From: Parasphingorhabdus sp. | Lineage (GTDB): Bacteria; Pseudomonadota; Alphaproteobacteria; Sphingomonadales; Sphingomonadaceae | Direction of reading: 5' to 3' | Assembly: GCF_036963805.1 (NCBI RefSeq) | Contig: NZ_JBALUN010000009.1 | Span: forward strand, 314-64,313 | DNA length: 64,000 nucleotides | The notes under the pieces: generated by a model | What the model was told of the DNA's origin: nothing | The model's database searches: none | The model's input: only the letters and a program-made list of their open reading frames with translations | Shown: one piece after another, positions 28,830 to 44,199 of the stretch | Layout of the letters: each line of letters starts with the position of its first letter | Position numbering within the stretch: position 1 is the first letter of the stretch | Made by a program: the position numbers and the translations under genes

Positions 28830-29816
28830 ATGACGTCCCCACATAAACTGCTTTCCTGTGCAATAATTCTGCCCTTGGCACTTTCTGCTTGCGGTCATGG
28901 CAGCGATAGGACCGGTCCAACGCAGTCAACACAAATGACCGCAGCGCGGCTGCTCATTCCGCCGCCGCCAACACCGCAGGCTGTAGTCCTGCCTAAAATA
29001 TTGCCCGGTCAGTTGAAAAAATTGGCGCGCGAGAAAGCGCGCCGCAAACTGATTTCGCCGGTTGACCGGATCACTCGCGCGAACAAAAAAGCACGCGTCC
29101 AGCCAGCAGGCGAGGGCTTTATCAATGCCGTGCAGGTCTATCCGTGGGCCGAAGGATCGCTTTATCAGGTCTATACCGCGCCCGGACAGATTAGCGATAT
29201 CGCGCTGCAGCCCGGTGAACGGCTTATTGGATCAGGACCGGTGGCGGCAGGCGATACCGTGCGCTGGATTATCGGCGATACGATAAGCGGCAGCGGCGCA
29301 AATGCCCGCGTGCATATATTGGTGAAGCCAGTGGCAAGCCGTCTTTCGACCAATCTCATTATCAATACTGACCGGCGCACCTATCATCTGGAACTCAATT
29401 CCACGCCCAAAGCCTATATGGCATCGGTAAGCTGGACTTATCCGCAAGATGAGCTGCGTGCTTTGACTTATGGCGCGGGCTGGGCGCGATCGATGGAACC
29501 CGTTGCTGCAGGATTGTCGCTCGATAATCTCAATTTTTCTTACAAGATCAGCGGTGACAAACCGGATTGGCGGCCGATCCGTGCCTTTGACGACGGACGG
29601 CAGGTTTTTATCACTTTTCCTGCCGGTGTCGGCAGGGGCGAGCTGCCGCCGCTATTTGTGCTCGGCGCAAGCGGAAATGCTGAACTGGTCAACTACCGCG
29701 TGCGGAACAATCACATGATTGTGGACCGGCTTTTTGATGTTGCCGAGCTGCGTTTGGGCGCAAAGAAACAGCAGATAGTCCGGATCAAGCGCCGCAAGAA
29801 AGCGAACCGGCGATGA
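28830..29816 (+). CDS. trbG: TrbG/VirB9
   Basis: VYTAPGQISDIALQPGE; AAGDTVRWIIG; LVNYRV. Confidence 0.95.
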   Translation: MTSPHKLLSCAIILPLALSACGHGSDRTGPTQSTQMTAARLLIPPPPTPQAVVLPKILPGQLKKLAREKARRKLISPVDRITRANKKARVQPAGEGFINAVQVYPWAEGSLYQVYTAPGQISDIALQPGERLIGSGPVAAGDTVRWIIGDTISGSGANARVHILVKPVASRLSTNLIINTDRRTYHLELNSTPKAYMASVSWTYPQDELRALTYGAGWARSMEPVAAGLSLDNLNFSYKISGDKPDWRPIRAFDDGRQVFITFPAGVGRGELPPLFVLGASGNAELVNYRVRNNHMIVDRLFDVAELRLGAKKQQIVRIKRRKKANRR

Positions 29817-30967
29817 CGGATGCAGCGAATAAAGAGCTTGAATCCCCGCCAGATGGCGGCAGCGATGATGTGAAAGCCGACCTCAGATCAAAACCGTTAT
29901 TGCGGCTTAGGCCCGAGCATATCCCGGTAACGCGGTTGTCGCGCAAGGCGTTGATTGCGCTTGGCGGCGGCTTTTCGATCATCATCGGCGCTGCGGCCAT
30001 ATTTGCCTTGCAGTCTGGTGAAGGCGGTATTGGCCCCGGTGAGCTTTTCGCCACGAACCAGAAGCCGTCTGCAGAAAGCTTGGCGGCACTACCGAAGGAT
30101 TATTCGGCCATTCCCAAATTAGGCCCGCCGCTGCCTGGTGATCTGGGCAAACCGATATTGGATGCAGGCGCGCAATATGAACTGCCGCCGCCTGAGTCAG
30201 CACCGCCGCCGGTTGATTCTGCGATTGCGGAACGCCAGCGGCAAAAAGATGCGGTTTTGGCGAGCCGGTTATTTACAGAAAGCAAGGAGGGTAATCAGCA
30301 GGCGGCGTCTGCGGCATCGCCATCTCTACCCGCTGTTGACACCAGTAGCGGTAATGCACGGGCAAACGAGCAGACTGTAAGCAATCATCGCCTGCAAAAG
30401 CCAGCCAGTCCATTCCTCATTCAATCAGGCTCGATCATCTCTGCAGCGTTGGTGACCGGCATCCGCTCCGACGTTCCGGGCCAGGTGACGGCTCAAATAA
30501 CACAGAATATCTTTGATAGTCTGACCGGAAATCTTTTGTTGATCCCGCAAGGCGCAAAACTGGTGGGCAGCTATAAAAGCAATGTCGGTTTTGGACAAAA
30601 CAGGCTCGCTATTGTCTGGACGCGGCTTTTGCTTCCCAACGGCAAATCGCTTATCCTCGATGAGCTATCTGCGAGCGATGCGCAGGGCTTTGCCGGATTG
30701 CAAGATGGGGTTGATCATCATTTTGACCGGCTTGCGCTGGCTGCTGGATTGTCGACGCTGCTTTCGGTGGGATCGCAAGCCGGGTCTGCCGGTGATAGTG
30801 ATATTGCGCGCGCCATAAGGGACGGCGTGTCTGACACCGCCGGGCGCACCGGCGAAGAAATTGTCGCGCGGCAATTGACGGTGCCGCCGACTATCACCAT
30901 CAAATCAGGCTTTCCTGTCCGCGTGATAGTCAGTCGCGACTTGGTTCTGGAACCCTATAGAGTTTGA
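29813..30967 (+). CDS. trbI: TrbI/VirB10
   Basis: LGPPLPGDLG; GSIISAALVTGIRSDVPG; PTITIKSGFPVRVIV. Confidence 0.95.
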   Translation: MTDAANKELESPPDGGSDDVKADLRSKPLLRLRPEHIPVTRLSRKALIALGGGFSIIIGAAAIFALQSGEGGIGPGELFATNQKPSAESLAALPKDYSAIPKLGPPLPGDLGKPILDAGAQYELPPPESAPPPVDSAIAERQRQKDAVLASRLFTESKEGNQQAASAASPSLPAVDTSSGNARANEQTVSNHRLQKPASPFLIQSGSIISAALVTGIRSDVPGQVTAQITQNIFDSLTGNLLLIPQGAKLVGSYKSNVGFGQNRLAIVWTRLLLPNGKSLILDELSASDAQGFAGLQDGVDHHFDRLALAAGLSTLLSVGSQAGSAGDSDIARAIRDGVSDTAGRTGEEIVARQLTVPPTITIKSGFPVRVIVSRDLVLEPYRV

Positions 30968-30977: not shown

Positions 30978-31202
30978 ATGGCTGATCTTCGCCTCAAGTC
31001 GCTGATTGATGACAAGCCGGTCAAGATGCAGGTCGAACTGCCCGCATCGGTGCATCGGGATCTTGAAGCTTATGCGGCAATCATGAGCGGCGAGGGCGGT
31101 GATGATATTGCTCCGCAGCGACTGGTTGGTCCGATGCTGGCCAAGTTTATGGCGAGCGACCGCGGGTTTAAGAAGGCTAAGCGGTTGAATAAGCCGGCTT
31201 AA
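30978..31202 (+). CDS. DUF2274 protein
   Basis: MADLRL...DDKPVK...LPASVHRDLEAYA...FMASDRGF. Confidence 0.9.
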   Translation: MADLRLKSLIDDKPVKMQVELPASVHRDLEAYAAIMSGEGGDDIAPQRLVGPMLAKFMASDRGFKKAKRLNKPA

Positions 31203-31293
31203 ATGCGCACACCGTACGCAATTGCATTGCAGTAAGATTTTATAAACCATTGGTTTTGCATCGAAATTGCTCCCCGACAAGGAGTAATTTCCG

Positions 31294-32535
31294 ATGTTCT
31301 CCAATGGCTATTCGCTACCACAAGATAATGCCCAAAACCATCTTCGAATCGTTTCGAAAAAGCGATCTGGTTCGCCACGAAAAACCTCCATCCGCCTCAA
31401 TGGTCATGTAGCGAGGCGAAAACCAAAAGCCCAGGAAACTGAATATTGGGACAAGGACCTGCCGGGCTTTGGATTGCGGGTTTTCCCATCGGGCCGCAAG
31501 ACATGGTTTGTCATGTTGCGCCAGCGCAAGAAGCAGCGAAGAATATCGCTTGGCCAGGTGGGTAAAGTCAGCGCAGATGAGGCACGGCGACATGCCAAAG
31601 CCGAACTCCTCAAGGTTGCGTTGGATGGTTTGTCCGCAAGTGGTTCGTCCAGTGCAGGCAAAAAGAAACAATCGCCCCTGATGCGCGACTATGCGCACCG
31701 CTTTTGGGCAGATTATGCCCGGCACTGGAAACCAAGCACCCAGAGTAGAAACAAGACCGCCATCTTTCGCGATATTTGTGATGCTTTTGGCGGCCATAGA
31801 GTCGATGAGCTTCGCAAGAGCGATATCCTGTTCTGGCGTGACGGATTTGCCGCCAAGCCTGGAGCATTCAACCGGACATTGCCGGTGCTTGCGGTGATGA
31901 TGACCTATGCTGAACAGCTTGGATTGCGCCCGAGAGGTTCAAACCCTTGCAAGGGAACACCGCGCTACAAGAAGACGCGCATGGAGCGCTTTCTGACCAA
32001 ACGCGAGTTTGGAAGACTGGCGTCAACTCTATTGGATTTTGAAAACACACGACCGGATGCAGTTAGCGCAATAAGGCTGCTGATCTTCACTGGCGCAAGG
32101 CGCGGTGAAATTGAAAACCTGCGATGGGAGTGGGTACAATCGCCAAGGCTGATGTTGCCCGACAGCAAGACAGGCGCGAAGATCATTTATCTCAACAAGC
32201 AGGCCCTTGCTGTCATCCACAGCATCCCAAATCCCAAAGCAAAAGGACTGGTCTTTCCAGCGCCCTATGCAGATGCACCAATCAACCTCGGAAACTTCTG
32301 GCCGAAAATAAGAAATCATGCAGCTTTGCCCGATGTGCGGCTGCATGATTTGCGGCATAGTTTTGCCTCGATAGCCATCGCCGATAATATCTCGCTGATG
32401 GTGATCGGCAAGCTGCTTGGTCATGCGCTCGCAGAAACCACAGCCCGCTATGCGCATCTTTCGGATGAAGTTGTTGCCGATGCTGCATCTCGTGTGTCCG
32501 GGTCTATTGCCAAATGTCTGGGGATGGCATCATGA
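31294..32535 (+). CDS. Tyrosine recombinase 1 with N-terminal arm-binding domain
   Basis: WDKDLPGFGLRV; FTGARRGEI, DSKTG, HDLRH, LGH, TARYAH. Confidence 0.95.
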   Translation: MFSNGYSLPQDNAQNHLRIVSKKRSGSPRKTSIRLNGHVARRKPKAQETEYWDKDLPGFGLRVFPSGRKTWFVMLRQRKKQRRISLGQVGKVSADEARRHAKAELLKVALDGLSASGSSSAGKKKQSPLMRDYAHRFWADYARHWKPSTQSRNKTAIFRDICDAFGGHRVDELRKSDILFWRDGFAAKPGAFNRTLPVLAVMMTYAEQLGLRPRGSNPCKGTPRYKKTRMERFLTKREFGRLASTLLDFENTRPDAVSAIRLLIFTGARRGEIENLRWEWVQSPRLMLPDSKTGAKIIYLNKQALAVIHSIPNPKAKGLVFPAPYADAPINLGNFWPKIRNHAALPDVRLHDLRHSFASIAIADNISLMVIGKLLGHALAETTARYAHLSDEVVADAASRVSGSIAKCLGMAS

Positions 32536-33746
32536 ATGCGCTAACACTCAGAGACATTGTCGCAGAAGAACTCGGCCACAGCTATATCAGTCTGACTGGC
32601 AATTGCCGGAAGAAGGGATGCCTTAGAAAAACCCGCTGGTCGCACAAGTTGCCGGGCTTTGGTGTTCGCGTCTATGACAGCGGGCGGAAGGTCTATATCG
32701 TCCAGGCGTTGATGCAGGGCAGAACCCGGACCGTAACCATCGGCAATGCCAAGATCGTCAATCGCCGTCAGGCGATGACCGTTGCACGGCGCGTGTTGAT
32801 CCGGGCGCAAAGCGGACAAAACCCTGCTGATGAACGAATGAAGAAACGCAAGGTGCCCTTGTTTGCAGACTTTCTCAAATCCTACTGGAAAACCATGTCT
32901 CCGAAGTGGAAGCCCTCAACCCGAAAGACCCAGACCAACTATCGAACAGCCTATCTCGACAATGCCTTTACCGGGAAATTTCTGGATGAGATTGTCGAAG
33001 AAGATGTGGTGTCATGGTTTAACTATGTCACCAATCGCGGCGGGCCGGGTGCTGGAAACCGCTGTCTTGATATCCTTCGCGCTATGCTGAACAAAGCCGA
33101 GGAATGGGGGCTGCGGGAAGAAGGCAGCAATCCTTGTACATTTGTCCGCATCAACAAGCGCCGTAAATTTGAAAGATTCCTGTCTGATCAGGAACTGGAG
33201 CGGCTCGGCAATGCGCTTGATGCAGCGCGGAAAACCTATCCGCTTCATTCGGTAATCATCTATCTGTTGATATTAACTGGTTGCCGCAAATCGGAAATTA
33301 CCGGTCTGCGATGGTCGGAAGTGAAGGGGAGGCGGTTGGTATTAACCGACAGCAAGACGGGACCGCGCACGGTCTGGCTCGGGGAAGAGGCGCATATGTT
33401 GCTAACTTGCCTTCCCAGACGAAAGGGTCATCCGGAAGTATTCTGGAATCCGAGAACCCGCAAACCTATCCGTAGCATGGGTTCGTTCTGGGTGAAGATT
33501 AAGGAGGATGCGAACCTTCCTGGCGTGAGGCTTCATGATCTGCGGCACAGTTTTGCAAGCCATGCCGCAGCGCGCTCGGAGACGCTGCCAATGATTGGAA
33601 AGCTCCTTGGTCACGCGCATATCACAACTACATCGCGATATGCGCATCTGGATGATGGGCAGGTCATCGAGGCATCGCAAAGGATCGGGGACTTGTTGGA
33701 AGAGGCGATGTGCGGGAAACGGACCGACATTGGTCATGAAAGATAA
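32532..33746 (+). CDS. Tyrosine recombinase 2, paralog of recombinase 1
   Basis: LPGFGVRV; LTGCRKSEI, DSKTG, HDLRH, LGH, TSRYAH; ATGA overlap with recombinase 1. Confidence 0.95.
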   Translation: MNALTLRDIVAEELGHSYISLTGNCRKKGCLRKTRWSHKLPGFGVRVYDSGRKVYIVQALMQGRTRTVTIGNAKIVNRRQAMTVARRVLIRAQSGQNPADERMKKRKVPLFADFLKSYWKTMSPKWKPSTRKTQTNYRTAYLDNAFTGKFLDEIVEEDVVSWFNYVTNRGGPGAGNRCLDILRAMLNKAEEWGLREEGSNPCTFVRINKRRKFERFLSDQELERLGNALDAARKTYPLHSVIIYLLILTGCRKSEITGLRWSEVKGRRLVLTDSKTGPRTVWLGEEAHMLLTCLPRRKGHPEVFWNPRTRKPIRSMGSFWVKIKEDANLPGVRLHDLRHSFASHAAARSETLPMIGKLLGHAHITTTSRYAHLDDGQVIEASQRIGDLLEEAMCGKRTDIGHER

Positions 33747-34489
33747 AAAATTTTGTAGAGCATCCATAGCCCCATACCGATCATCGTCAGGTTTTCGGTG
33801 AGTGACACAAAGCCAAGCGGAACATTGCTGTCACCGCCGACACAGGCGCATTTCAGTTCACGTTTCTGTACATAAACAGCGTAGATCACCGACACCGCGC
33901 CAATGGTTCCGATGAACAGAGCGACGGGAATGGCCAGCCACATTGCTATTCCCGCGATCATCAATATCCCGGCCAGCCCCTCTCCAAACGGGTAAAGATA
34001 GCCATATCGTACCCAGCGCTGACCAAGCAGGTCATAGTTGAGGAACATGGTCGAAAAACTCTCGATATCGCGCAGCTTCAGATAAGCCAGTCCGCACATC
34101 GAAAAGGCGACAAACCACTCTGCGGTAAGTATTGAAAGCCACTGCCCGGTCGCAACAAAGGCCGCAGCCAGCGCCATCAGGAACATCATTGCGAATAGCG
34201 CAACCACCGGCTGATAGCTGATGTCGTTCTCGGCTTCTTCTGGCCTGTCCTTGCCGAAAAATATCCGCAGATCGTCAAATCCGCCAATTCGTTCGTCGTC
34301 GATAAAGGTTTGTGGAGTCGTCTCGACGTTATGTTTTTCCTTGAATGTGTCGGTTTCTGCGCGTGTCTTGAGATGGTAGTCTTCGATCTCCAAACCTTTG
34401 CGTTCGAGCAGGTCCTTTGATTTCAGGCCATAAGGACAGACATGTTTTTCCATGACCATCCGGTAAAGCTTGGCTTTGTGTTTGGTCAT
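33734..34489 (-). CDS. Glutaredoxin fused to a MauE/DoxX membrane domain
   Basis: CPYG, TTPQTFI, IGGFDDL; LKCACVGG. Confidence 0.88.
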   Translation of the reverse strand: MTKHKAKLYRMVMEKHVCPYGLKSKDLLERKGLEIEDYHLKTRAETDTFKEKHNVETTPQTFIDDERIGGFDDLRIFFGKDRPEEAENDISYQPVVALFAMMFLMALAAAFVATGQWLSILTAEWFVAFSMCGLAYLKLRDIESFSTMFLNYDLLGQRWVRYGYLYPFGEGLAGILMIAGIAMWLAIPVALFIGTIGAVSVIYAVYVQKRELKCACVGGDSNVPLGFVSLTENLTMIGMGLWMLYKIFYLS

Positions 34490-34521
34490 TCATATTCCTC
34501 TACAGCTTTGCATGAAAGACT

Positions 34522-34546
34522 AACGTGTTTAGAAGGTGGAAGTTCC
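34522..34546 (-). promoter_or_regulatory. EcfG-type promoter (glutaredoxin/MauE gene)
   Basis: GGAAC-N16-CGTT exact. Confidence 0.8.
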
Positions 34547-34574
34547 TGATTAAAAAAACCGATGTGGAGCCAAG

Positions 34575-35195
34575 ATGGCACTAAAGCTTCAAGTTTCAGA
34601 ATTGATCGTTCCAAAATCCATTGAAACGACGCTCAAATCGGGCCGGAATATCTGTCTGCGTGCAATCCGAGCTGATGACGAAGAGAATATTGACGAGGGT
34701 ATCCGCGAACTATCCGATCAGTCGCGCTATTTGCGGTTCTTTTCCGGCTTCAAGGAGGCCCCGCCTTCGGTAGTAGAAAGACTTGCCGCCGCCGATGGGA
34801 GTGATCATATTGCATGGGGGATGATTGATATGGATCATCCGGATCAAAAGGCCTTTGCTGCAGCTCACGCGATCAGAGAGAGTAGCGATGATCGTTTCGG
34901 CGAATTTTCCATCGCGGTGCTCGATGAGTATCAAGCACAGGGTTCAGGAAGAATATTGATGACCACGGTCTTTCTGCGTTGTCTCATGGAAGATATAGAC
35001 ATGCTCGACATCCAAACCTTGCACGAAAATAAGAAAGCGAAGGCACTGGTGAAATCGGTCGGAGCGGAACTGGTAAAAACGGAGGGGTCAATCGCGTTCT
35101 ATTGTTTGAATATATCGTCCGCCTTGGCGTTACTATATGACAAGCACAATGCACCTGGAATCCAGTCTGTTTTTCAGGCCTTTGGAACCCGCTAG
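34575..35195 (+). CDS. GNAT-family acetyltransferase
   Basis: LSDQSRYLRFFS; EFSIAVLDEYQAQGSG. Confidence 0.85.
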   Translation: MALKLQVSELIVPKSIETTLKSGRNICLRAIRADDEENIDEGIRELSDQSRYLRFFSGFKEAPPSVVERLAAADGSDHIAWGMIDMDHPDQKAFAAAHAIRESSDDRFGEFSIAVLDEYQAQGSGRILMTTVFLRCLMEDIDMLDIQTLHENKKAKALVKSVGAELVKTEGSIAFYCLNISSALALLYDKHNAPGIQSVFQAFGTR

Positions 35196-35208
35196 CGTTT
35201 TAGGCGTT
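35184..35208 (+). promoter_or_regulatory. EcfG-type promoter (PLD gene)
   Basis: GGAAC-N16-CGTT exact. Confidence 0.8.
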
Positions 35209-35219
35209 GGGATCAGAGA

Positions 35220-36695
35220 GTGGCGAAAAGCGCCCTGAAAGAGGCCAATATCACAAGATTGCAACTAGAGCCGGGCCAGAATTGCTGGCGAGTAGAAGAG
35301 GCTCGGCAGGCCTCCGTCATTGTCGATGGAGAAGCTTATTTCCGGTATTTGCGTCACGCGATGGCGAAGGCAAAGCGGCGGATTATACTAGCGGGATGGG
35401 ATTTTGATACCCGCGTAGAAATGAACGATACCGAAAAGGATTTGCAGGGACCGCTGAAGGTTGGTGATTTTATCGACTGGCTGGTCGCGAGAAACCCCGA
35501 TCTCCAGATATACATATTGCGCTGGGATGTCGGGGCAATCAAATCTTTCGCGCGCGGTTCGATGTTCTTCAAGGTTCTAAAATGGCAGTTCCACCCCCGC
35601 ATCCATCTGAAACTCGATGGCCAGCATCCTACGGGTGCGGCCCAGCATCACAAGATCGTTGCGATTGATGATGACGTCGCTTTTTGCGGCGGCATAGACG
35701 TGACAGCTGGGCGATGGGACACGCGGACGCATGAACCCGGGCACCGCTACCGCAAACAGCCAAACGGCGAAGATCACAGTCCATGGCATGACGCATCGCT
35801 GGCGGTCCAGGGGCCTGTCGCAACGGCGCTCGCATCCTTCGCGCAGTCTCGCTGGCACAAGGCAGGCGGAAAGGATATGATTGAAGCCAACGGTTCGCAG
35901 GATTGCTGGCCGGACGATCTGAAGCCTGACTTTAAAGAGGTCGATATCGGTATTGCGCGCACGCAGCCGGAGATGGATGATCAGGAGGATGTCCGCGAGA
36001 TAGAGCAGCTTTATATCGACCTGATTCGATCCGCAAAGCGCATAATCTATGCTGAAAGCCAGTATTTTGCCTCGCGTCATATTGCGGCTGCCATCGCCGA
36101 GCGGCTGCAGGAACAGGATGGCCCAGAAATTGTTGTCCTCAACCCGATTTCATCGGAAGGGTGGCTGGAAGAACAGGTCATGGACACTGCCAGAGCGCGG
36201 ATTTTCGCAGCCTTGCAGAAGCGGGACAGGTTTAACCGGCTCCGTTTGTATCATCCGGTTAACGAGGCTGGCGAAGAAATATATGTCCATGCCAAAATCG
36301 TGATCATCGACGATCAGGTCATCAGGATCGGCTCTTCGAATATCAACAACCGGTCAATGGGGCTCGATACCGAGTGCGACCTGGTGATTGATGCTGGTGA
36401 CGATGATGAAGGCAGTGCCGCGCGCGAACAAATTTCTCGCATTCGGAACGGTTTGCTGGCCGAACATCTGGGTTCCAGCGAAAAGAACATTGCCGAGAAA
36501 TTTGAACAGACAGGCTCGCTGATGGAAACCATTCAGCTATCCCGGAAACCGGGCCGCACATTGCGTGATTACCAGGTGCCTAACTTAGACGACACCGAGA
36601 AATGGCTCGCCGACAACGAGATACTGGATCCGGAAAGCCCCGATGAGATGTTTGCGGGCATAACCAAGCGCGGCTGGTTCAAACGTTTGGGGTAA
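35220..36695 (+). CDS. Phospholipase D-family protein
   Basis: Two HKD motifs: HHKIVAIDD and HAKIVIIDD...GSSN. Confidence 0.93.
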   Translation: MAKSALKEANITRLQLEPGQNCWRVEEARQASVIVDGEAYFRYLRHAMAKAKRRIILAGWDFDTRVEMNDTEKDLQGPLKVGDFIDWLVARNPDLQIYILRWDVGAIKSFARGSMFFKVLKWQFHPRIHLKLDGQHPTGAAQHHKIVAIDDDVAFCGGIDVTAGRWDTRTHEPGHRYRKQPNGEDHSPWHDASLAVQGPVATALASFAQSRWHKAGGKDMIEANGSQDCWPDDLKPDFKEVDIGIARTQPEMDDQEDVREIEQLYIDLIRSAKRIIYAESQYFASRHIAAAIAERLQEQDGPEIVVLNPISSEGWLEEQVMDTARARIFAALQKRDRFNRLRLYHPVNEAGEEIYVHAKIVIIDDQVIRIGSSNINNRSMGLDTECDLVIDAGDDDEGSAAREQISRIRNGLLAEHLGSSEKNIAEKFEQTGSLMETIQLSRKPGRTLRDYQVPNLDDTEKWLADNEILDPESPDEMFAGITKRGWFKRLG

Positions 36696-36740
36696 TACGA
36701 CCTTTCCGATCACCGTATCAAACCGTCCGAATATTTTGAG

Positions 36741-36765
36741 GGAACCAGTTGTTGGGCTCTGCGTT
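36741..36765 (+). promoter_or_regulatory. EcfG-type promoter (microprotein-DUF421-DUF202 unit)
   Basis: GGAAC-N16-CGTT exact. Confidence 0.8.
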
Positions 36766-36791
36766 GGATCATCATGAAAAGGAAATCCGTC

Positions 36792-36881
36792 ATGCGCTAT
36801 TTTTGGAGGACTGCTGCGGCCGCAATCGTGTCCGTTGCCGTTCGAACCATCATCAAAAAACTATCAAGAAAAGAACGCTGA
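36792..36881 (+). CDS. 29-aa microprotein MRYFWRTAAAAIVSVAVRTIIKKLSRKER (not in ORF track)
   Basis: AAGGA RBS, EcfG-type promoter, similarity to 48003-48158. Confidence 0.7.
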   Translation: MRYFWRTAAAAIVSVAVRTIIKKLSRKER

Positions 36882-36968
36882 AGGCACTGACAGTGATAAG
36901 GCCAAGAGTGCCTGATTTCTTCAATTTTCCTCGCCTTTCGATATGTGTTGATGTGAAGGATATCGATA

Positions 36969-37520
36969 ATGCCATGGCTTAGCGCGCCGGTTACGAATGT
37001 CCTATGGATCGCCTTGTCGGCGATCCTTGTCTATGTAGTTCTAGTTGCTTTGACCCGATTGGCCGGGATCAGAAGTTTTTCCAAAATGAGTGGCTTTGAC
37101 TTTGCGATCACAGTTGCGATCGGCTCCGTCATTGCATCAGTGGTTATTGCAAAAGACCCGCCAGTCGCAAATGGTGCAGCGGCCCTCGTGATGTTGTTCG
37201 CTATCCAGATCGGATTTGCAGCATTGCGCAGCCGGTTTTCCGGCATAGAGGCTCTGGCTGACAACAAGCCGCGCCTCATCATGATCGGCAATGAAATTCA
37301 GTTTGATCAGCTCAAAAAATCGCAGATGACCGAAAGCGATCTGATGGCTAAGTTACGAGAAGCAAACGTTTTCAGCTTTTCTCAGGTTACAGCGGTCATC
37401 GCGGAAACGACTGGCGATGTTTCAGTTTTACATTCGTCGCAGGAAGATGCCAGGCTGCACCGGAAAATCACAACAGACGTGATTGGCGCCGACAGGCTTG
37501 GCAATGATCGCTTCGAATAG
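36969..37520 (+). CDS. DUF421/YetF membrane protein
   Basis: GIRSFSKMSGFDFAITVAIGS; AETTGDVSVL. Confidence 0.9.
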   Translation: MPWLSAPVTNVLWIALSAILVYVVLVALTRLAGIRSFSKMSGFDFAITVAIGSVIASVVIAKDPPVANGAAALVMLFAIQIGFAALRSRFSGIEALADNKPRLIMIGNEIQFDQLKKSQMTESDLMAKLREANVFSFSQVTAVIAETTGDVSVLHSSQEDARLHRKITTDVIGADRLGNDRFE

Positions 37521-37541
37521 TCTCGATTTTGGAATTTTTCG

Positions 37542-37976
37542 ATGAGTGACGGATCAAAGAACAATGAAGATCTTGCCGAAGACCGGACGGATCTTGCTGA
37601 TGATCGAACCGATTTGGCGGAGAAACGGACAGATTTCGCAGAAGACCGGACGGTTATGGCAAATGAACGAACCTTTGCCGGATGGATGCGAACAGGCTTG
37701 GCCGCTGTCGGAATCGGACTTGGTTTCAATGCCCTGTTTGGCGAGTTACAGCCCTTCTGGCTTCCACGCGGGATCGCTACTGCATTCATCCTGATCGGTG
37801 TTTTCATATTTTATGCGGCACAGAAAAACGGATGCGCGGTTCATGAAAGACTGGAATCGCATAGCTCCGAACCATTGCCCGGCGCAAATCTGCGTGCGAC
37901 CGCTATGGCAATGAGCACAGCCAGCCTTTTGCTTGTCTTCGGATTATGGTTGATGGAAGTGGAAAGCGGAGGATAG
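37542..37976 (+). CDS. DUF202/YidH membrane protein
   Basis: RTVMANERTFAGWMRTGLA. Confidence 0.9.
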   Translation: MSDGSKNNEDLAEDRTDLADDRTDLAEKRTDFAEDRTVMANERTFAGWMRTGLAAVGIGLGFNALFGELQPFWLPRGIATAFILIGVFIFYAAQKNGCAVHERLESHSSEPLPGANLRATAMAMSTASLLLVFGLWLMEVESGG

Positions 37977-38063
37977 GGCCTCGGTCAACCTCTTACGATA
38001 GCATAGCCCGCTGTTTCGCTGGCAAAACTACGGTCTTTCTTTTGATGGTCGTTGTGTTTGCGA

Positions 38064-38477
38064 TCAGGACAGTCTGAAGAGCACATCCACTTCTTCATGG
38101 TATTCTCCACCCGGCGCATCCGTGTTGCGCAGTATCTTCGCCTTTGGTCGAAAGCATGATCGGTTCTCCGCGATCCATCAAAGCAAGTCGTCGAGAGGAA
38201 TTCCAACCTCATCGCGCTGTACGCTAGAATAGCAATAAAAATGCAGGCCATCGATATCGATCAGTGCATAAGTTCCGGCGTGATCGCCTTCCTCTACCCG
38301 GATACTATTCTCGATTTCACCAACAGTATCACCGTTCAGATTGACCACTTCCTTGCCTTCAAAATGATTGTCAATTTCCTTAAGGGGAGGCGATTTTGAT
38401 GCCCACATCATCCAGCGCGCTGATGATGCGAATTCCGATATCCCGATGAAAGCGATGCCTTCTAATGTGTTTTTCAC
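38064..38477 (-). pseudogene. Hypothetical gene with a possible in-frame TGA at 38178-38180
   Basis: Reading frame stays open for 37 more codons past the stop (LLxWIAENRSCF...). Confidence 0.35.
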
Positions 38478-38607
38478 TTATAGCAGATTTTGTTGAAGTA
38501 CCCTAGTTCGCGGACTGAATCTCTCGATACGGAGGAGAAAAATCCAAAAAATATTTAGTTTGTATTGATAAATCTGGAACGAATGGGACGTTGCCGAGTA
38601 GTTTGTT

Positions 38608-38712
38608 TAGATGAGGTAGTACCCCCGAATAAATGCCCCATCTGAACTAGAAAGACCGGAAAATTTGCCGCACTCCTGACCTCCCGTCGTGCCTGCAAAT
38701 TTTCCGGTCTAA
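38608..38712 (+). ncRNA. Candidate EcfG-dependent sRNA with C-rich loops
   Basis: GGAAC-N17-GT upstream at 38576-38599; hairpin with ACCCCC loop; perfect 16-bp stem 38653-38668/38695-38710 enclosing GAC-CTCCC-GTC. Confidence 0.6.
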
Positions 38713-38730
38713 ATTTATGAAATTTGCAAT

Positions 38731-38760
38731 AAAAAAGGCCGGGTGCATTGCCCGGCCTTC
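38731..38760. terminator. Intrinsic terminator of the 38781-39008 gene
   Basis: AAGGCCGGG/CCCGGCCTT stem with an A6 tract. Confidence 0.8.
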
Positions 38761-38780
38761 CTGGATGCGGATCTGGAAAA

Positions 38781-39008
38781 CTATTCTTCGGACGGCATCT
38801 CTACGTCAACGTCCGGCACATCAACGGTCACTTCTTTTGTGCCAACTTCAACATCTGCAGTTTCAACATCAACTTCTGGCATCTCGCCAGCATCTGCAGA
38901 AACATCAACATCCATGGACGGCAATTCGCCTTCATCTGTCACTTCGGCTTCACATGCGGTCAGTGCCAGTCCGGCAATCACAGTTGCTGCAATAGAAATC
39001 TTTTTCAT
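38781..39008 (-). CDS. Small acidic lipoprotein
   Basis: LTAC lipobox; D/E/V-rich mature part. Confidence 0.8.
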   Translation of the reverse strand: MKKISIAATVIAGLALTACEAEVTDEGELPSMDVDVSADAGEMPEVDVETADVEVGTKEVTVDVPDVDVEMPSEE

Positions 39009-39039
39009 CTCGAACTCCCTTTCATTGGTTCAAGCGACC

Positions 39040-39064
39040 AACGATAGAAAAGGAGACCGGTTCC
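39040..39064 (-). promoter_or_regulatory. EcfG-type promoter (acidic lipoprotein)
   Basis: GGAAC-N16-CGTT exact. Confidence 0.8.
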
Positions 39065-39076
39065 AATATTTTTCGA

Positions 39077-39814
39077 TTATTCTCTACCCAGTCGCATGCG
39101 GAAAGCGTCGAGGTGAAAATAGCTGGGATCAAATTGGCAGATTTCTGCCAAACGGCTGGCATCACGAAAGACGATCCAGCCTTTTTCTCGATCGAGCAAA
39201 TCATCCTTTTCCAGTTGCCGTAGAACGCGATTGGTGTGGATTGGAGTCAGGCCCAGCGCGTCGGCAATGACAGTCTGTGTCAGCGGCATGCGAAAGCCAT
39301 CGCGCGTGCCTTCGTCGATGATCTGTATCCGCCGGTGGAGTTCGAGAAGGAAATGACCAATCCGCTCGCGCGCGGTTTGCTGTCCATTGCGCACGATCTG
39401 TTCGCGCAGAAATGCCTCTTCCTGAACCTGCATCCACCAGAAAGCCAAAGTCAATTTACCGGATTCGGTCAGTAATCGCCGGAATTCGGAAGGTTCCACC
39501 GACAGGGTCTCCAGTTCGGTTATCGAGAGAACCGAGTGATCAGCTTCGGCTGCAACCAGCACCTGCAAATCGAAAATATCGCCTGGCAGAAGCACGTTCA
39601 ATATCTGCCGGCGTCCGTCTTCCAGGGTTTTATACCGCACGGCCCAGCCTTGTTTGATGACCAGAACGCTATCCATCTGTTGGCCGGCGTCAACGATATC
39701 CAGATTGCGGTCGAAGCGTTTTTCTTTCCCTTCTAAGCCCATAACCCCATCCTGCACCACCTCATCAAGGTCCGCGTAAAATGAGATGCGGCGGAGCAGC
39801 GCCCTTTTGGCCAT
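39077..39814 (-). CDS. Crp/Fnr-family regulator
   Basis: DGRRQILNVLLPGD; ARERIGHFLLEL; PLTQTVIADALGLTPIHTNRVL. Confidence 0.92.
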   Translation of the reverse strand: MAKRALLRRISFYADLDEVVQDGVMGLEGKEKRFDRNLDIVDAGQQMDSVLVIKQGWAVRYKTLEDGRRQILNVLLPGDIFDLQVLVAAEADHSVLSITELETLSVEPSEFRRLLTESGKLTLAFWWMQVQEEAFLREQIVRNGQQTARERIGHFLLELHRRIQIIDEGTRDGFRMPLTQTVIADALGLTPIHTNRVLRQLEKDDLLDREKGWIVFRDASRLAEICQFDPSYFHLDAFRMRLGRE

Positions 39815-41313
39815 TATGTGGTTCCGTTCGGTTTGGGAAATGTCACCGTGCAGACCAAACCGTCCGGCGTCCAGTCCCGTTCAATGCTGCCATGCAAATT
39901 GCGGGTAATGCTGTGGTCGATGAGCGAAGATCCAAAGCCGCTATTAGAAGGAGATTCGGTAATCAATGGACCGCCCTTTTCCAGCCATATCAACTTAACC
40001 ATTTCGGTTTCTTTTCCTGCTTCGACATCCCATTTAATGTCTACCTCACCATCACGCTCTGCCAACGCTCCATATTTCGCCGCATTGGTCGCAAGTTCAT
40101 TTAGCACAAGCGACAGTGACACCATCGCATTCTCGGGAATTGTGAGGTCCGGGCCTGACACACTAACGCGAGGATAAGTCTGTGACAGATCATTGACCAA
40201 CGCCTTGAACGAACCCGTTACGAAATTGGTGTCGAGCAATATCTGCTGCGCCCGGTTCAAGGCGCGCAATCGGCTGGAAATACGTTCCATATAGTCATCA
40301 ATCGAGGTTGCTGATTTCTTGGTCAGCGTCATGATTGACTGCAGCGTAGAAAACAGATTCCGCAGCCGGTGATGCAATTCTCGGGTGTGAAGGCGTAGCT
40401 GGTCTTCCGTCTGAACCGAGTTTGTAACATCCTTGTTCAGACCCGTTAAGGTAGGCCTGCCGTTAACCAGCAAATGATCTCCAAATCCTTCAATCCAGCG
40501 AATTTCCTCCGATGGGAGCACAATACGAAATGTTGCTTCATATTTCTCTCCGAGGTTAGCCGCTGCGCTCATTGCAGTCACTACCGCATCTCGATCATCT
40601 TCGTGAATGCGGGCCATGGCGCTATCCAAATCAGCCAATTTTTCTCCGGCATCTTCACCCCATATCTTCATATATGCCCCGCCCCATTCTATGTGGCCAC
40701 TTTCAAGATCAATTCGAAAACTGCTGGTGTTGCTGAGTGCAAGCGTCAATTCGAGATCGGTTCGATTCTGTGCCGCTTGTCTTTGGGCTTTCTCCCGAAG
40801 CGCCATTTCCCGGCGCAATTCCATCTCGCTGATGACCAGGTCAGAAAAGTCGCGCAAATGTTGGATTTCAGAATCGGTGGGTCTGGCTCGCGGTTCAGTG
40901 TCTCCAATCCAGAATGAGCCCAGCACCATCCCATCGGGAGCAATGAGCGGTGCACCCGCATAGAAGCGGATATAGGGCTCACCAATCACCAACGGGTTGT
41001 CGCGAAAACCGGATTTGGCTGTGTCTTCAACGACCAACGGTTCCTGACCATCCACTACATGTGAACAAAAGGAAATGTCTCTTGCGGTGGATTCGGATTT
41101 GATGCCCACTGCCGACTTGAACCATTGCCGGTCGGCATCAACGAATGAGATGGATGCCATTGGTGCTTTGAAAATATCGGCGCAAAGCCTCGTGATTCGG
41201 TCAAATGCGACTTCTGGGGCGCTGTCCATAATGTTGTAATGCCGAAGTGTTTTCAGTCGCTCTTCTTCGATAACTGAAGATCGCTTTGGTTTAGCTTGCT
41301 GACCAGAATGCAT
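39814..41313 (-). CDS. GAF-PAS HWE/HisKA_2 sensor histidine kinase
   Basis: GAF IRFYAGAPL; ELHHRLRNLF; NELATNAAKYGAL; WLEKGGP. Confidence 0.92.
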   Translation of the reverse strand: MHSGQQAKPKRSSVIEEERLKTLRHYNIMDSAPEVAFDRITRLCADIFKAPMASISFVDADRQWFKSAVGIKSESTARDISFCSHVVDGQEPLVVEDTAKSGFRDNPLVIGEPYIRFYAGAPLIAPDGMVLGSFWIGDTEPRARPTDSEIQHLRDFSDLVISEMELRREMALREKAQRQAAQNRTDLELTLALSNTSSFRIDLESGHIEWGGAYMKIWGEDAGEKLADLDSAMARIHEDDRDAVVTAMSAAANLGEKYEATFRIVLPSEEIRWIEGFGDHLLVNGRPTLTGLNKDVTNSVQTEDQLRLHTRELHHRLRNLFSTLQSIMTLTKKSATSIDDYMERISSRLRALNRAQQILLDTNFVTGSFKALVNDLSQTYPRVSVSGPDLTIPENAMVSLSLVLNELATNAAKYGALAERDGEVDIKWDVEAGKETEMVKLIWLEKGGPLITESPSNSGFGSSLIDHSITRNLHGSIERDWTPDGLVCTVTFPKPNGTT

Positions 41314-41410
41314 AATTTACCTTTTAATCGCCAATTGTCCGCTACGCCAAGCCTAATTTCTCTGGCGTCCTTATCCTAACTGCGAACCAGCAGATTTGTT
41401 GCAATTTTTC

Positions 41411-41435
41411 GGAACAAACAAGGCTTCGGTGCGTT
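41411..41435 (+). promoter_or_regulatory. EcfG-type promoter (general stress protein)
   Basis: GGAAC-N16-CGTT exact. Confidence 0.8.
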
Positions 41436-41480
41436 CTTTTGAATGAACCCCGAGTGAAAATGAACAACAAGGAGTCCGCA

Positions 41481-41966
41481 ATGACCCAAGAGAATCTCGA
41501 AGAACTTTATGACATGATTGACGATGTCGGAACCGCCATGCTGGTGACGGAGAATAACGCTGAATTGCGAAGCCGTCCGATGACCGGCAAATTGCATCGT
41601 GATACTGGCGAAATCTGGTTCCTGACCGAAACCGCATCTGAAAAGATACGGGAAATTTCAAAAGATGGCACGGCCAACCTGACCTATGCTTGTCCGGAAA
41701 AGGAGACATATATCTCGATTTCCGGCAGCGCGAAAACGATCCGCAATCAAGATAAGATTGATGACCTATGGGGACCATGGGCCGAAGCATGGCTGCAATG
41801 CGAGAAGGATGACCAAAAAGTTTCTGCTATTTGCTTTAAACCGGAAATAGCGGAATATTGGTCATCGCCATCTTCTACAATAGTCCAAAGCTGGGAACTG
41901 GCCAAAGCCAAGATCACCGACGAAAAGCCCGATCTGGGTGAAAACAAAACTGTGAAAATAGCTTAA
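41481..41966 (+). CDS. General stress protein, pyridoxamine-oxidase-like FMN-binding fold
   Basis: AMLVT...LRSRPM...IWFLT...SEK...AEYWSSP. Confidence 0.85.
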   Translation: MTQENLEELYDMIDDVGTAMLVTENNAELRSRPMTGKLHRDTGEIWFLTETASEKIREISKDGTANLTYACPEKETYISISGSAKTIRNQDKIDDLWGPWAEAWLQCEKDDQKVSAICFKPEIAEYWSSPSSTIVQSWELAKAKITDEKPDLGENKTVKIA

Positions 41967-41984
41967 AATCATTTCACAAGCATA

Positions 41985-42015
41985 CAAAAAAGCGGGGTTT
42001 CAGCCCCGCTTTTTA
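41985..42015. terminator. Bidirectional intrinsic terminator
   Basis: AAAAAAGCGGGG-loop-CCCCGCTTTTT. Confidence 0.85.
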
Positions 42016-42041
42016 ATTGCCTATATAATTTAAATTGCGAT

Positions 42042-42332
42042 CTATCTGCGAGCGAGCAGGGCGCCGACGATCAAGCCTACACCTGCCGTCACCAGCAATG
42101 TGCTCATTGGATTTTCTCGAACCGCCTCGCGCGCTTTTGCCTTTCCTTTGGAGCCAGCATCGAAAGCATTAGATCTCGCTTCTCCAGCTTTCTGTTTTGC
42201 TGTTGCACGGAGCTCTGCAGCGTTTTCCTTGGCGTCAGCAGTGACAGATTTCACCAGATTGGAAAAATCCTGCTTCAACGAGTTCATATCTTTCTTTACG
42301 GCTCCTAATTCTTCGGAATAATTGCCGGACAT
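42042..42332 (-). CDS. DUF883/ElaB-YqjD family protein
   Basis: VRENPMSTLLVTAGVGLIVGALLARR. Confidence 0.88.
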   Translation of the reverse strand: MSGNYSEELGAVKKDMNSLKQDFSNLVKSVTADAKENAAELRATAKQKAGEARSNAFDAGSKGKAKAREAVRENPMSTLLVTAGVGLIVGALLARR

Positions 42333-42364
42333 TGTTTTCTCCTTTTTTGATTGCATATAGCTTC

Positions 42365-42389
42365 AACGAGCAATGGGTTTAATCGTTCC
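42365..42389 (-). promoter_or_regulatory. EcfG-type promoter (DUF883 gene)
   Basis: GGAAC-N16-CGTT exact. Confidence 0.8.
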
Positions 42390-42482
42390 CAAAAGACGCG
42401 AATTTGGTGAAAAATAATCGACTCTTCCCTTGCAACCCTTTTTGTTTTGATGCGTATGCTTCCCATCACGGAGTAAATTTGA

Positions 42483-43259
42483 ATGTCCCTAGCCGAAACC
42501 CTTCGCCCGCAATTGCCTTATCTGCGCCGCTATGCGCGCGCGCTAACCGGAAATCAAAAAAGCGGGGATTCCTATGTGAAAGCAACATTGGAAGCCATTA
42601 TCGCCGAACCGGATTCAATCGATACCAGTGGCGATATTCGCGTGCAGATTTACAAAATTTTCGGACGTATCTGGGAAAGCTCAAATGCGTATTCTGAAGT
42701 TGATGACGCCGGTAGTGGCGACGATCAGCTGACGACCATCCCTCCGATCAGCCGCCAAATCCTCTTGCTCACCGCGCTGGAAGGATTCTCTCTTTTCGAT
42801 GTCGCCGACATCGCCAATATTGGGGAAAATTCAATTAATGGATTGATGGAAGAAGCGATTGCCGAGATTGATCGCGAAATGCGCACCGATGTCCTTATCA
42901 TCGAGGATGAAGCGCTCATTACTATGGAGTTGGAGCAGATCGTTACTGAGCTTGGACATAATGTCTGCGGCACAGCAACTACGCACAAAGCTGCGCTAGC
43001 GGCGGTGGATAAAGCAAAACCCGGATTGGTGCTCGCCGATATTCAACTTGCCGACGGAAGCTCGGGCATTGATGCCGTTAAAGATATATTGGATCAGTTT
43101 TCAGTTCCGGTCATTTTCGTAACCGCTTTCCCGGAGCGATTGCTAACGGGCGAGAGGCCGGAACCAACTTTCCTAATCACCAAGCCTTTTCAATCAAATG
43201 CAATTCGCGCAGCCATCAGCCAAGCGCTATTCTTCTCCCAACAGACGGAAGCCGCATAA
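42483..43259 (+). CDS. phyR: Anti-anti-sigma response regulator PhyR
   Basis: Sigma-like N-terminus LPYLRRYARALTG; receiver LIIEDE, LADIQLADGSSG, LITKPF. Confidence 0.95.
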   Translation: MSLAETLRPQLPYLRRYARALTGNQKSGDSYVKATLEAIIAEPDSIDTSGDIRVQIYKIFGRIWESSNAYSEVDDAGSGDDQLTTIPPISRQILLLTALEGFSLFDVADIANIGENSINGLMEEAIAEIDREMRTDVLIIEDEALITMELEQIVTELGHNVCGTATTHKAALAAVDKAKPGLVLADIQLADGSSGIDAVKDILDQFSVPVIFVTAFPERLLTGERPEPTFLITKPFQSNAIRAAISQALFFSQQTEAA

Positions 43260-43267
43260 TCGAGATT

Positions 43268-44081: not shown

Positions 44082-44199
44082 TTTTGCCTCGTTTTACTAA
44101 ACTCATGTGAAGTCAACACATGTCCTAGAAGAAAGTTCCATAGAGGCAAAGCAGAAAAATTTCCACTCAATGAATGTCAGTCACAACCGATAAATGCCA

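Follow-up and report, generated by a model that had tools for sequence, protein, structure and literature searches.

The window, a 64,000-nucleotide stretch of the Parasphingorhabdus sp. genome, carries two overlapping genes for arm-type tyrosine recombinases, int1 (positions 31294 to 32535, forward strand, 413 aa) and int2 (32532 to 33746, forward strand, 404 aa), the A-type and B-type members of a pair. Open reading frame and domain analysis showed that both are intact and directly follow the gene for a DUF2274 protein (30978 to 31202, forward strand; PF10038, E = 1.5e-29), the last backbone gene of a Trb-type ICE, which is itself preceded by the gene for TrbI (29813 to 30967). An AAGGAG motif lies 9 nt upstream of the int1 ATG. 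At the junction of the two genes, an ATGA, the in-frame int2 start codon at 32532 overlaps the int1 stop codon TGA (32533 to 32535); a second in-frame ATG at 32514 would give a protein of 410 aa instead of 404 aa, so that the exact int2 start is only putative. The 4-nt overlap was also found in a copy of the pair on contig C1 of the same genome and in at least nine related loci. Translational coupling of this kind suggests that Int1 and Int2 may be produced in near-equal amounts.

Int1 and Int2 align over 378 residues with 39% identity (E = 1e-80) and have in common the Pfam domains Arm-DNA-bind_3 (PF13356; E = 8e-12 and 3e-7 in the pair), Phage_int_SAM_3 (PF14659) and Phage_integrase, the catalytic domain (PF00589; E = 5e-14 for Int1 and 4.6e-18 for Int2). 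Residues R269, K292, H351, R354, H377 and Y386 (Int1 numbering) are invariant in both, and, among solved structures, the nearest chains belong to phage-type integrases and a DUF4102 arm domain. Downstream, a convergent MauE-glutaredoxin gene (33734 to 34489, reverse strand) overlaps int2 by 13 nt. A sequence-only reading of this DNA had described two paralogous recombinases of about 410 aa with arm domains, an ATGA overlap and a complete R-K-H-R-H-Y set, placed directly after DUF2274, overlapping a convergent cargo gene by 13 nt and lying about 19 kb from a tRNA junction; the reading frames, domain matches and protein identity agree with this description, and the positions were confirmed. Exact-protein look-ups in public records gave no match for this locus, and E. 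coli genomes and plasmids contained no near-identical DNA; the MauE gene alone was matched, to roseobacter plasmids.

The left border of the element to which the pair belongs lies in the short interval between DUF2274 and int1. Here we identified a 13-nt attL core, GCACACCGTACGC (31207 to 31219, forward strand), which marks the start of the element 4 nt after the DUF2274 stop codon, leaving DUF2274 outside. The last two bases of the core begin a palindrome, GCAAT-TGC-ATTGC (31218 to 31230, forward strand), that could form a hairpin. The exact 13-mer occurs only three times in the 3.9-Mb genome, once in the window and twice on C1, where one copy lies upstream of the pair and the other closes the element at its far side. 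About 20 related loci also keep the core, at a distance of 60 to 250 nt before int1. Similarity of the ICE backbone to a second ICE on C1 reaches position 31231. Nucleotide identity of 84% to a locus in an Opitutaceae metagenome-assembled genome (L017) begins precisely at the core and spans only 31207 to 33707, stopping 39 nt short of the int2 stop. A perfect stem of at least 4 bp was found at the identical register in 18 of 20 attL sites, with covarying arms of 12 different sequences; when the tails were shuffled in 2000 trials, the number of such sites averaged 0.65 and never exceeded 4. An Rfam search at the core and hairpin returned no match, and over the whole window it returned tRNA only. 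Further downstream, AAATTGCTCCCC (31264 to 31275, forward strand) repeats, in inverted orientation, the terminal motif GGGGAACAACTT that related elements have at their right end: the right ends of L017, L019 and an Aurantiacibacter plasmid read GGGGAACAACTTCG(T/C) and then the core, and AA(G/T)TTGTTCC(C/T) is also found immediately upstream of int1 in L053, L018 and L036. The motif at 31264 to 31275 is probably a recombinase binding site.

Comparison with related loci defined both ends of the element. The genome contains three pairs, those in the window, at C1:37415-39759 and at C7:115509-113202. On C1, GTGCACACCGTACGC is present at 37261 and 76714, enclosing the pair and 39 kb of catabolic cargo; on C7, TGCACACCCTACGCA is present at 115630 and 102456, enclosing the pair and 13 kb. 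In L017, TGCACACGGTTCGC at 9913 and 16629 encloses the pair and two methylase genes, with a drop in G+C content, and joining the flanks in silico restored a 231-aa DeoC reading frame. The Aurantiacibacter plasmid, likewise with direct repeats, carries two pair elements in tandem. Intact relatives end in a GGGGAACAACTT-like motif and a second core, so that direct repeats of 13 to 15 nt delimit the element, as expected if an element site recombines site specifically with a look-alike target. In the sister copies on C1 and C7 and in copies elsewhere, the repeats of the core measure 14 to 15 nt. The cargo downstream of the pair is variable: the copy in the window has stress genes, that on C1 catabolic and that on C7 defence-like ones, and further copies carry methylases or other defence genes. 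One distant lineage (L040 to L042) does not fit a simple left-end arrangement: the similarity between its three copies, all in one genome, includes sequence upstream of the pair but extends only about 450 nt past it on the downstream side.

In the window, the cargo is an 18-kb general-stress-response island (33734 to 52217) between int2 and the right end. Pfam searches identified MauE-glutaredoxin, PLD, two DUF421, DUF202, Crp regulator, HWE kinase, PhyR, EcfG-type sigma factor, BLUF, two MscS, hemerythrin and DUF2254 genes. Beyond it lies a conserved patch (52654 to 52746, forward strand) that shares 86% identity with C1:75656-75749 and 78% with C7:103079-103015; the two sister copies are 91% identical to each other. 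The patch of both sister elements precedes an SSB gene, after which comes the right core repeat. In the window, just 82 nt separate the patch from a complete tRNA-Arg(CCG) gene (52829 to 52905, reverse strand; ARAGORN and Rfam) at the right end of the ICE. This gene, the sole tRNA gene in the window, lies 19.1 kb downstream of the pair and sets the position at which the nested element must have stopped. Neither an ssb gene nor a right-end motif nor a second core was found in the window when core and motif were searched with up to 4 to 6 mismatches, the second core being absent at up to 4. A look-alike of the junction on contig C14 was attributed to chance, having no wider similarity.

Since the window has no second repeat, the extent of its element is taken from the analogy with C1 and C7 and from the conserved patch. 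Loss of the ssb gene and the right repeat makes excision unlikely, and with the right attachment site absent the stress island is probably no longer mobilizable by the pair. The window's copy retains attL and both genes intact, has lost the terminal ssb gene and attR, and is most likely fixed in the ICE, moving only with it. The pair is thus real and conserved, yet this copy is probably immobilized. The earlier proposal that the pair mobilizes the stress island separately from the ICE holds in that the pair delimits an element of its own within the ICE, but probably not for this copy, whose right att site is missing. Capture of cargo by the recombinases, also proposed in that reading, is speculative. 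In principle, the stress island could instead be older cargo of the ICE, beside which the pair element landed before losing its right part.

The two genes have a long common history. Among 80 related loci, 23 have a first gene at least 46% identical to int1, and in 16 of these an int2-type gene lies directly behind it; the other seven mostly have a truncated match or lie on a short contig. Phylogenetic analysis placed 31 pairs in one clade (support, 100/100) that splits into a first-gene (A) clade, including int1, and a second-gene (B) clade, including int2, with mirrored topology. The A-to-A and B-to-B identities are correlated with r = 0.96, and the first and second genes of one element are 27 to 40% identical. 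In a larger set of 39 first-gene and 39 second-gene proteins, made up of the 31 pairs and 8 of a second pair lineage, the residues R, E, K, H, R, H and Y are kept in all 78. The hosts are mainly Sphingomonadales. Loci related to the pair number more than 546. These patterns indicate that the pair is an old, conserved and coevolving module of two paralogues and not a decayed duplicate. The suggestion in the sequence-only reading that the two recombinases are genuine partners is supported by the constant pairing and the mirrored clades. In the neighborhood survey, variable downstream cargo always accompanied the pair.

Taken with the direct repeats, these observations make it likely that int1 and int2 constitute the two-enzyme recombination module of a separate integrative element that is nested in the ICE and is now truncated. 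The element would consist, in order, of the attL core GCACACCGTACGC, the hairpin, the inverted terminal motif, the coupled int1-int2 operon and cargo, here the stress island. Annotation of ICEs and islands usually assumes one integrase per element, beside the att site; a second, self-contained recombination system with its own ends inside an ICE would account for the origin of the 18-kb island.

We considered four other explanations. The first is a division of labor in time, in which one protein is the integrase proper and the other is chiefly an excision, directionality or regulatory factor. Across 33 loci, no conserved third gene, Xis-like or otherwise, adjoins the pair, and a division in time would account for the absence of a conserved excisionase gene. 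The A and B proteins also differ consistently around the active site, with TGAR versus TGCR and LPDSKTG versus LTDSKTG as lineage signatures. However, a full catalytic set in all 78 proteins is unexpected for a purely architectural factor, and translational coupling suggests similar amounts of both. We regard this division as rather unlikely.

A second possibility, that the pair serves the ICE or plasmid in multimer resolution or maintenance, with the core and hairpin as a res site comparable to those of XerCD/dif and Cre/loxP, appears very improbable. Such a system would fit the single site in the window, which lies where the transfer operon ends, immediately before the genes, and the presence of pairs on plasmids. 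In C1, C7, L017 and the Aurantiacibacter plasmid, however, core direct repeats enclose pair and cargo together, and removal of the segment from L017 repairs an interrupted deoC gene. Moreover, 29 related Trb/DUF2274 ICE ends from the same bacterial family have neither pair nor core within 1.5 kb, and the NCBIfam Xer models score only 33 to 65 bits against cutoffs of about 330.

We give very little credence to a third explanation, that the pair is a heteromeric integrase of the ICE itself and that the cargo merely lies between it and the att site. In its favor, two related ICEs in this genome each have the pair after the last transfer gene, about 19 to 37 kb from a tRNA gene in the same orientation. 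The ICE, however, has another candidate integrase. The 5' half of the host tRNA-Arg lies at 53031 to 53072 and its 3' half at C20:5838-5882, where it adjoins a single arm-type integrase (C20:4336-5676). By its position, the C20 integrase fits the role of joining the ICE to its tRNA target, which indicates that the pair is not the ICE integrase. The core repeats also enclose only pair and cargo, with the transfer genes outside. Backbone proteins of the two related ICEs are 84 to 97% identical, whereas their pair modules are only 52 to 55% identical, and the 29 ICE ends mentioned above lack the pair. The other pairs have no Trb genes within 10 kb upstream. An empty ICE site, with DUF2274 followed by the core but no pair, was not found in 150 genomes of the family; their DUF2274 genes are only up to 60% identical, and these backbones are therefore too distant to inform on such a site. 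Tandem accretion at the tRNA gene was rejected because no tRNA-Arg 3' repeat is present between DUF2274 and int1. Lastly, it is scarcely credible that the pair is a functionless relic of two tandem islands at one site with the intervening DNA deleted: tandem arrays of pair elements do exist, but the A and B clades are ancient and mirrored, the 4-nt overlap is conserved in many loci, the two genes of an element are far diverged yet have diverged in step, and no att remnant lies between int1 and int2 because the genes overlap.

For the nested element with its two-enzyme module, we propose that the A- and B-type integrases would act jointly, as a mixed complex on an asymmetric site. Each enzyme would read one side of the site and perform one pair of strand exchanges, as in XerC/XerD, and the arm-type N-terminal domains would assist in assembly of the complex. 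We infer such heteromeric, XerCD-like action from strict pairing, codivergence and intact catalytic sites in both genes. A more far-reaching version is tentative and, in our estimation, possible rather than probable: the A and B integrases would form an obligate mixed tetramer in which the two strand exchanges are divided as in XerC/XerD and arm sites guide assembly as in lambda/P4, a combination so far undescribed, and the hairpin abutting the core would be recognized in its folded, single-stranded form, as in integron attC and CTX-phi attP, tying integration to single-stranded entry of the carrier ICEs and plasmids. If the obligate mixed complex is real, it would be a new tyrosine recombinase design and might yield site-specific tools for asymmetric sites. 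The cargo of the two-gene module includes catabolic, defence and restriction-modification genes, in many Alphaproteobacteria and also in other groups, and because core, hairpin and terminal motifs are recognizable, such islands can be delimited from sequence alone.

None of the papers searched described paired arm-type integrases. The known systems closest to the pair differ from it as follows. DUF4102 (Arm-DNA-bind_3) integrases of islands and ICEs correspond to the IntSXT subgroup of Smyshlyaev et al. 2021 (PMC8138268). P4/SXT-type integrases are made up of the same three domains as the pair (arm-binding, SAM-like core-binding and catalytic; about 400 aa), have the same catalytic set and likewise integrate site specifically, leaving short direct repeats. 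They are, however, encoded by one gene, usually accompanied by a small excisionase, and mostly target tRNA genes; the pair consists of coupled paralogues with a mirrored A/B phylogeny and no conserved excisionase, and its targets are look-alikes of the 13-nt core, with a hairpin abutting the core. The C20 integrase and the Tn4371-type integrase are ordinary members of the P4/SXT type, 28 to 29% identical to the pair. XerC and XerD are also two paralogous, catalytically competent tyrosine recombinases that act on an asymmetric site, as the pair putatively does, but they lack an arm domain, are not encoded by the element on which they act and work at dif; the likeness is one of proposed mechanism only. 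Membership of the pair among Xer proteins was rejected on the TIGR02224 and TIGR02225 scores (33 to 65 bits versus cutoffs of 330 to 335) and the presence of an arm domain.

Several multirecombinase elements resemble the pair in layout. Tn554 (TnpA, TnpB and TnpC) and IME8 of Lysinibacillus (Int1, Int2 and Hp3), in which both recombinases are experimentally required (PMC13239906), are likewise site-specific elements whose left end carries an attL-int1-int2 operon. In these systems, a third small protein (TnpC or Hp3) is essential, one recombinase is of ordinary size and one is large, and neither has a DUF4102 arm domain; the pair has proteins of equal size (413 and 404 aa) and no third gene conserved across the 33 loci. 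The analogy with TnpA/TnpB drawn in the sequence-only reading survives only as a functional one, and membership fails on the defining features. Like the pair element, strand-biased circularizing integrative elements (SE) and GInts are nonconjugative, vary in cargo and encode two or more tyrosine recombinases at their left end. SE elements have the order intA-tfp-intB-srap, with tfp between the integrases and imperfect inverted-repeat termini of 13 to 19 bp, and GInts have ginABCD, with three recombinase-like genes; in both, the four core genes include one for a recombinase-fold protein that lacks the catalytic motif, and the footprint is 6 bp, and they are reported only from Gamma- (and Beta-) proteobacteria and as absent from Alphaproteobacteria (PMC10214605). 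The short inverted terminal motif makes the ends of the pair element partly alike those of SE elements, but int1 and int2 overlap by 4 nt with nothing between them, and there is no tfp or srap counterpart. Assignment to GInts was rejected because there are only two recombinase genes and because of the reported absence of GInts from Alphaproteobacteria. RIT (recombinase in trio) elements share overlapping tandem tyrosine recombinase genes in a compact mobile unit, but have three arm-less recombinases between long inverted repeats; the pair has two genes, both arm-type, with core direct repeats and cargo. The int1-int2 module linked to tmexCD-toprJ belongs to the SE class (PMC10214605) and is set apart from the pair here by published gene order, not by alignment. 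Integrases about 29% identical to the pair on Klebsiella and Pseudomonas plasmids were also considered as tmexCD-linked pairs, and the one inspected was a single Tn4371-type ICE integrase.

The window contains two overlapping open reading frames for arm-type tyrosine recombinases, int1 (31294-32535, + strand; 413 aa) and int2 (32514-33746, + strand), and a second in-frame ATG of int2, at 32532, overlaps the int1 stop in the sequence ATGA. The two proteins are 39% identical (E = 1e-80) and have the same arm-binding, SAM-like and catalytic domains, the build of phage/P4-type integrases. Both keep the catalytic residues R, K, H, R, H and Y, while NCBIfam Xer models match only far below their cut-offs; RefSeq labels the genes merely "site-specific integrase." The immediate upstream neighbors are TrbI and then DUF2274, int2 shares 13 nt with a convergent MauE-glutaredoxin gene, and the sole tRNA gene of the window, tRNA-Arg(CCG) (52829-52905, − strand), lies 19 kb downstream. 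The ORFs, domain matches and coordinates agree with the sequence-only reading, which had described two paralogous arm-domain recombinases with an ATGA overlap and intact catalytic residues, directly after DUF2274, about 19 kb from the tRNA and overlapping a convergent gene.

A short core motif, GCACACCGTACGC, exact or altered at one or two positions, occurs approximately 60 to 250 nt upstream of int1 in nearly every Sphingomonadales locus, and in the window it occupies 31207-31219, 4 nt downstream of the stop codon of DUF2274. The exact 13-mer has three copies in the 3.9-Mb genome: upstream of the window int1, upstream of the int1 of a second pair on contig C1, and at C1:76716, at the end of the C1 ICE and 150 nt before a tRNA-Lys. 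For a third pair, on contig C7, the variant GCACACCCTACGC is present at 115630 and again, in the same orientation, at 102456. With core copies at both ends on C1 and C7, 15-nt direct repeats therefore bound pair and cargo, the cargo being catabolic genes spanning 39 kb on C1 and, on C7, 13 kb that includes a reverse-transcriptase-protease fusion and a NERD-ATPase. In this C7 element (102456-115642; loci L012 and L013) the protease part is trypsin-like and the NERD-AAA protein has 1102 aa. The element lies directly behind another island (SSB, IrrE-like HTH-peptidase, QueC-like protein, DUF3800 and SLOG-domain protein), and the region looks like a tandem array of defense islands. A further site, on contig C14 (19887-19899, − strand; GCTTAAATGGCCACACCGTCCGCA), resembles the DUF2274-stop/core junction at approximately 21 of 24 bases; it has neither DUF2274 nor wider similarity, and the likeness is probably due to chance.

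Locus L017, in an Opitutaceae MAG (OX638348.1, 9913-16642), is the nearest relative of the pair in the window, with 84% nucleotide identity only over window 31207-33707. L017 carries TGCACACGGTTCGC at 9913 and 16629, and the 6.7 kb between these repeats, of lower G+C content, contains, besides the pair, two genes for DNA methylases and two unknown ones. The element splits a deoC-like gene, and once its flanks are joined at the repeat, a DeoC-type reading frame of 231 aa runs through without interruption; as reconstructed, L017 is a clean insertion whose empty site can be recovered. Its int2 appears to be frameshifted, and its occurrence in a Verrucomicrobia MAG points either to a recent transfer between phyla or to a fault in binning or assembly. 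On the closed plasmid NZ_CP015441 of Aurantiacibacter atlanticus, two pair elements stand in tandem, with the core at every junction. Judged by the 13-15-nt identity at both junctions, insertion of these elements is site-specific.

At the left end is a short perfect palindrome with a 4-6-bp stem and a 3-4-nt loop, whose first two bases are also the final two of the core. Of 20 sites, 18 have it in exactly this register, and their arms comprise 12 different sequences; shuffled controls gave a mean of 0.65 such sites and at most 4. In the window it is the hairpin GCAAT-TGC-ATTGC (31218-31230). The right ends of L017, of the related locus L019 and of the Aurantiacibacter element read ...GGGGAACAACTTCG(T/C) with the core directly after, and an inverted copy of this motif sits between hairpin and int1 (AAATTGCTCCCC, window 31264-31275). 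The C1 and C7 elements have in common a right-end module consisting of a patch of approximately 65-95 nt, an ssb gene and the right repeat. Copies of the patch (window 52654-52746; C1:75656-75749; C7:103079-103015, − strand) are 78-91% identical and contain a conserved hairpin, CTGTCCGG...CTGGACAG; the patch may act as a promoter or single-strand promoter, or encode a small RNA. The small ssb gene follows it in two of the three elements (C1 and C7). Between the two target flanks, the overall layout thus runs core, hairpin, inverted motif, int1 and int2, then cargo (followed by patch and ssb in C1 and C7), and finally the terminal motif and a second core. Five elements, L097 (16506-17202), L018, L019, L034 and L053, have a RelE/ParE toxin gene with antitoxin directly after int2, likely an addiction module of that sub-lineage; this module is absent from the window.

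We propose that the two recombinases work jointly at an asymmetric site, dividing its two sides and the two pairs of strand exchanges between them in the manner of XerC and XerD. The arm domains would bind the inverted motifs, and the hairpin may serve as a binding or folding element. Such a mechanism would be heteromeric; the alternative is a temporal division of labor between the two proteins, integration versus excision. That the pair is a resolution system is contradicted by the core repeats, which enclose pair and cargo, and by the restored deoC frame of L017.

The window belongs to a Trb-type (Tn4371-like) ICE, with genes for a RovC/DUF2285-type regulator, DUF2840, a lytic transglycosylase, a relaxase, HipAB and TraG, a cargo block (LuxR regulator and RND pump), then TrbB to TrbI and DUF2274. 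The HipA-HipB toxin-antitoxin pair (6797-8427, − strand) has the relaxase on one side and TraG on the other, and contig C7 also encodes a HipA, 46% identical to that of the window. The 18 kb from int2 to the tRNA hold a general stress response set of the alphaproteobacterial kind, with PhyR, an EcfG-type sigma factor, an HWE kinase, MscS channels and PLD among its members. The host tRNA-Arg is split, with its 5' half at window 53031-53072 and the 3' 45 nt on contig C20, where a lone arm-type integrase gene adjoins them and ordinary chromosomal genes come next; we infer the C20-C9 linkage in a fragmented genome (67 contigs, 3.9 Mb; window at C9:314-64313). This integrase shares 28-29% identity with int1 and int2 and is the obvious candidate for the enzyme that serves the ICE itself. 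Its presence beside the split tRNA-Arg, and the absence of both pair and core from 29 more distant ICE ends of the same bacterial family, contradict a reading of the pair itself as the ICE integrase.

In the second ICE of the genome, on C1, the pair likewise follows DUF2274. Transfer proteins of the two ICEs are 84-97% identical, whereas their pairs are only 52-55% identical, and nucleotide similarity ends at window position 31231. Different pair elements in the identical position after DUF2274 point to independent site-specific insertions, or element exchange, at a core-like ICE backbone sequence. At the other loci, the 10 kb fetched contained no Trb genes upstream of the pair. At the end of the second ICE is a tRNA-Lys(UUU) gene (C1:76877-76952), the 3' 46-48 nt of which recur at C28:248-295 and C3:2706-2751; repeats of tRNA-Lys thus seem to delimit either the second ICE or a tandem partner, in the manner of the tRNA-Arg ICE.

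Each of the three pairs in the genome (window, C1:37415-39759 and C7:115509-113202) has an int1-type gene and then an int2-type gene, with identities of approximately 50% between like members and 37% between unlike ones. A scan of 185,579 species genomes yielded more than 546 related stretches. Among the best 80 loci, 23 had int1 identity of at least 46%, and an int2-type gene followed immediately in 16 of these; in most of the other 7 the match was truncated or the contig short. Pairs were also present at many more distant loci. Hosts are mainly Sphingomonadales, with other Alphaproteobacteria, Gammaproteobacteria, Binatia, Acidobacteriota and an Opitutaceae MAG. A maximum-likelihood tree covering 39 pairs together with 14 single relatives and two ICE integrases places 31 of the pairs in one clade (support 100/100) that divides into first-gene and second-gene clades with mirrored branching, one long-branched exception aside. 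Eight further pairs form a separate paired lineage, and the single integrases fall outside the pair clades. Pairwise identities of first genes correlate with those of second genes (r = 0.96), members of one element are only 27-40% identical to each other, and R, E, K, H, R, H and Y are kept in 78 of 78 pair proteins. The mirrored clades, co-divergence, low within-element identity and catalytic residues rule out a recent duplication or tandem-insertion accident, and such ancient clades contradict a relic of accretion. By these comparisons, both proteins are under selection as enzymes, and the left-end module is strictly paired, co-diverging and catalytically intact, with variable cargo. Phylogeny and neighborhood survey thus bear out the earlier suggestion of a partner pair.

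The left end, int1 and int2 are intact in the window copy. Its patch is followed by only 82 nt and then the ICE-borne tRNA-Arg, and ssb, terminal motif and second core were found nowhere in the window or contig C9. The simplest reading would be that the element once spanned 31207 to slightly past 52746, with the stress island as cargo, and that a later deletion took out ssb and the right attachment site, attR. The pair is probably no longer able to excise the island, which would now move only with the ICE; part of the island may be ICE cargo that predates the element's arrival. The proposal that the pair moves cargo separately from the ICE was largely right in kind, given the repeat-bounded sister elements with variable cargo, but with ssb and attR absent this mobility has probably been lost in the window.

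We considered known multi-recombinase systems. Tn554 and IME8 combine two recombinases with a small third protein, whereas the present pair has no conserved third gene; RIT elements have three arm-less recombinases, in contrast to two arm-type ones here; and the four core genes of SE and GInt include one for a recombinase-fold protein that is not catalytic, where the pair has no third or fourth conserved gene. SE and GInt are reported only from Gamma- and Betaproteobacteria (PMC10214605). The tmexCD-toprJ-carrying int1-int2 module belongs to the SE class. Because the pair consists of two equal-sized, overlapping arm-type integrases with no third or fourth conserved gene, it lacks the defining features of every one of these classes. 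No description of tandem or paired integrases, tandem DUF4102 or a DUF2274-linked integrase was found in the literature searched, which excluded most subscription journals, so that absence is not proof. The module appears to be a variant of site-specific integrative elements undescribed in print.

A distant lineage, L040-L042, does not match the simple left-end layout. These are three near-identical copies of a distant pair in one genome (OZ241969.1, Candidatus Poriferihabitaceae), with sequence upstream of the pair common to all and a shared boundary approximately 450 nt after int2. Beyond this boundary, approximately 100 nt are similar, not identical, between the sites, a layout unlike that of the Sphingomonadales elements. 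In L084 and L085 (CBDBGH010000003.1), two divergently oriented integrase pairs stand back to back, giving four integrases, and this block occurs twice in one genome, in part as inverted copies.
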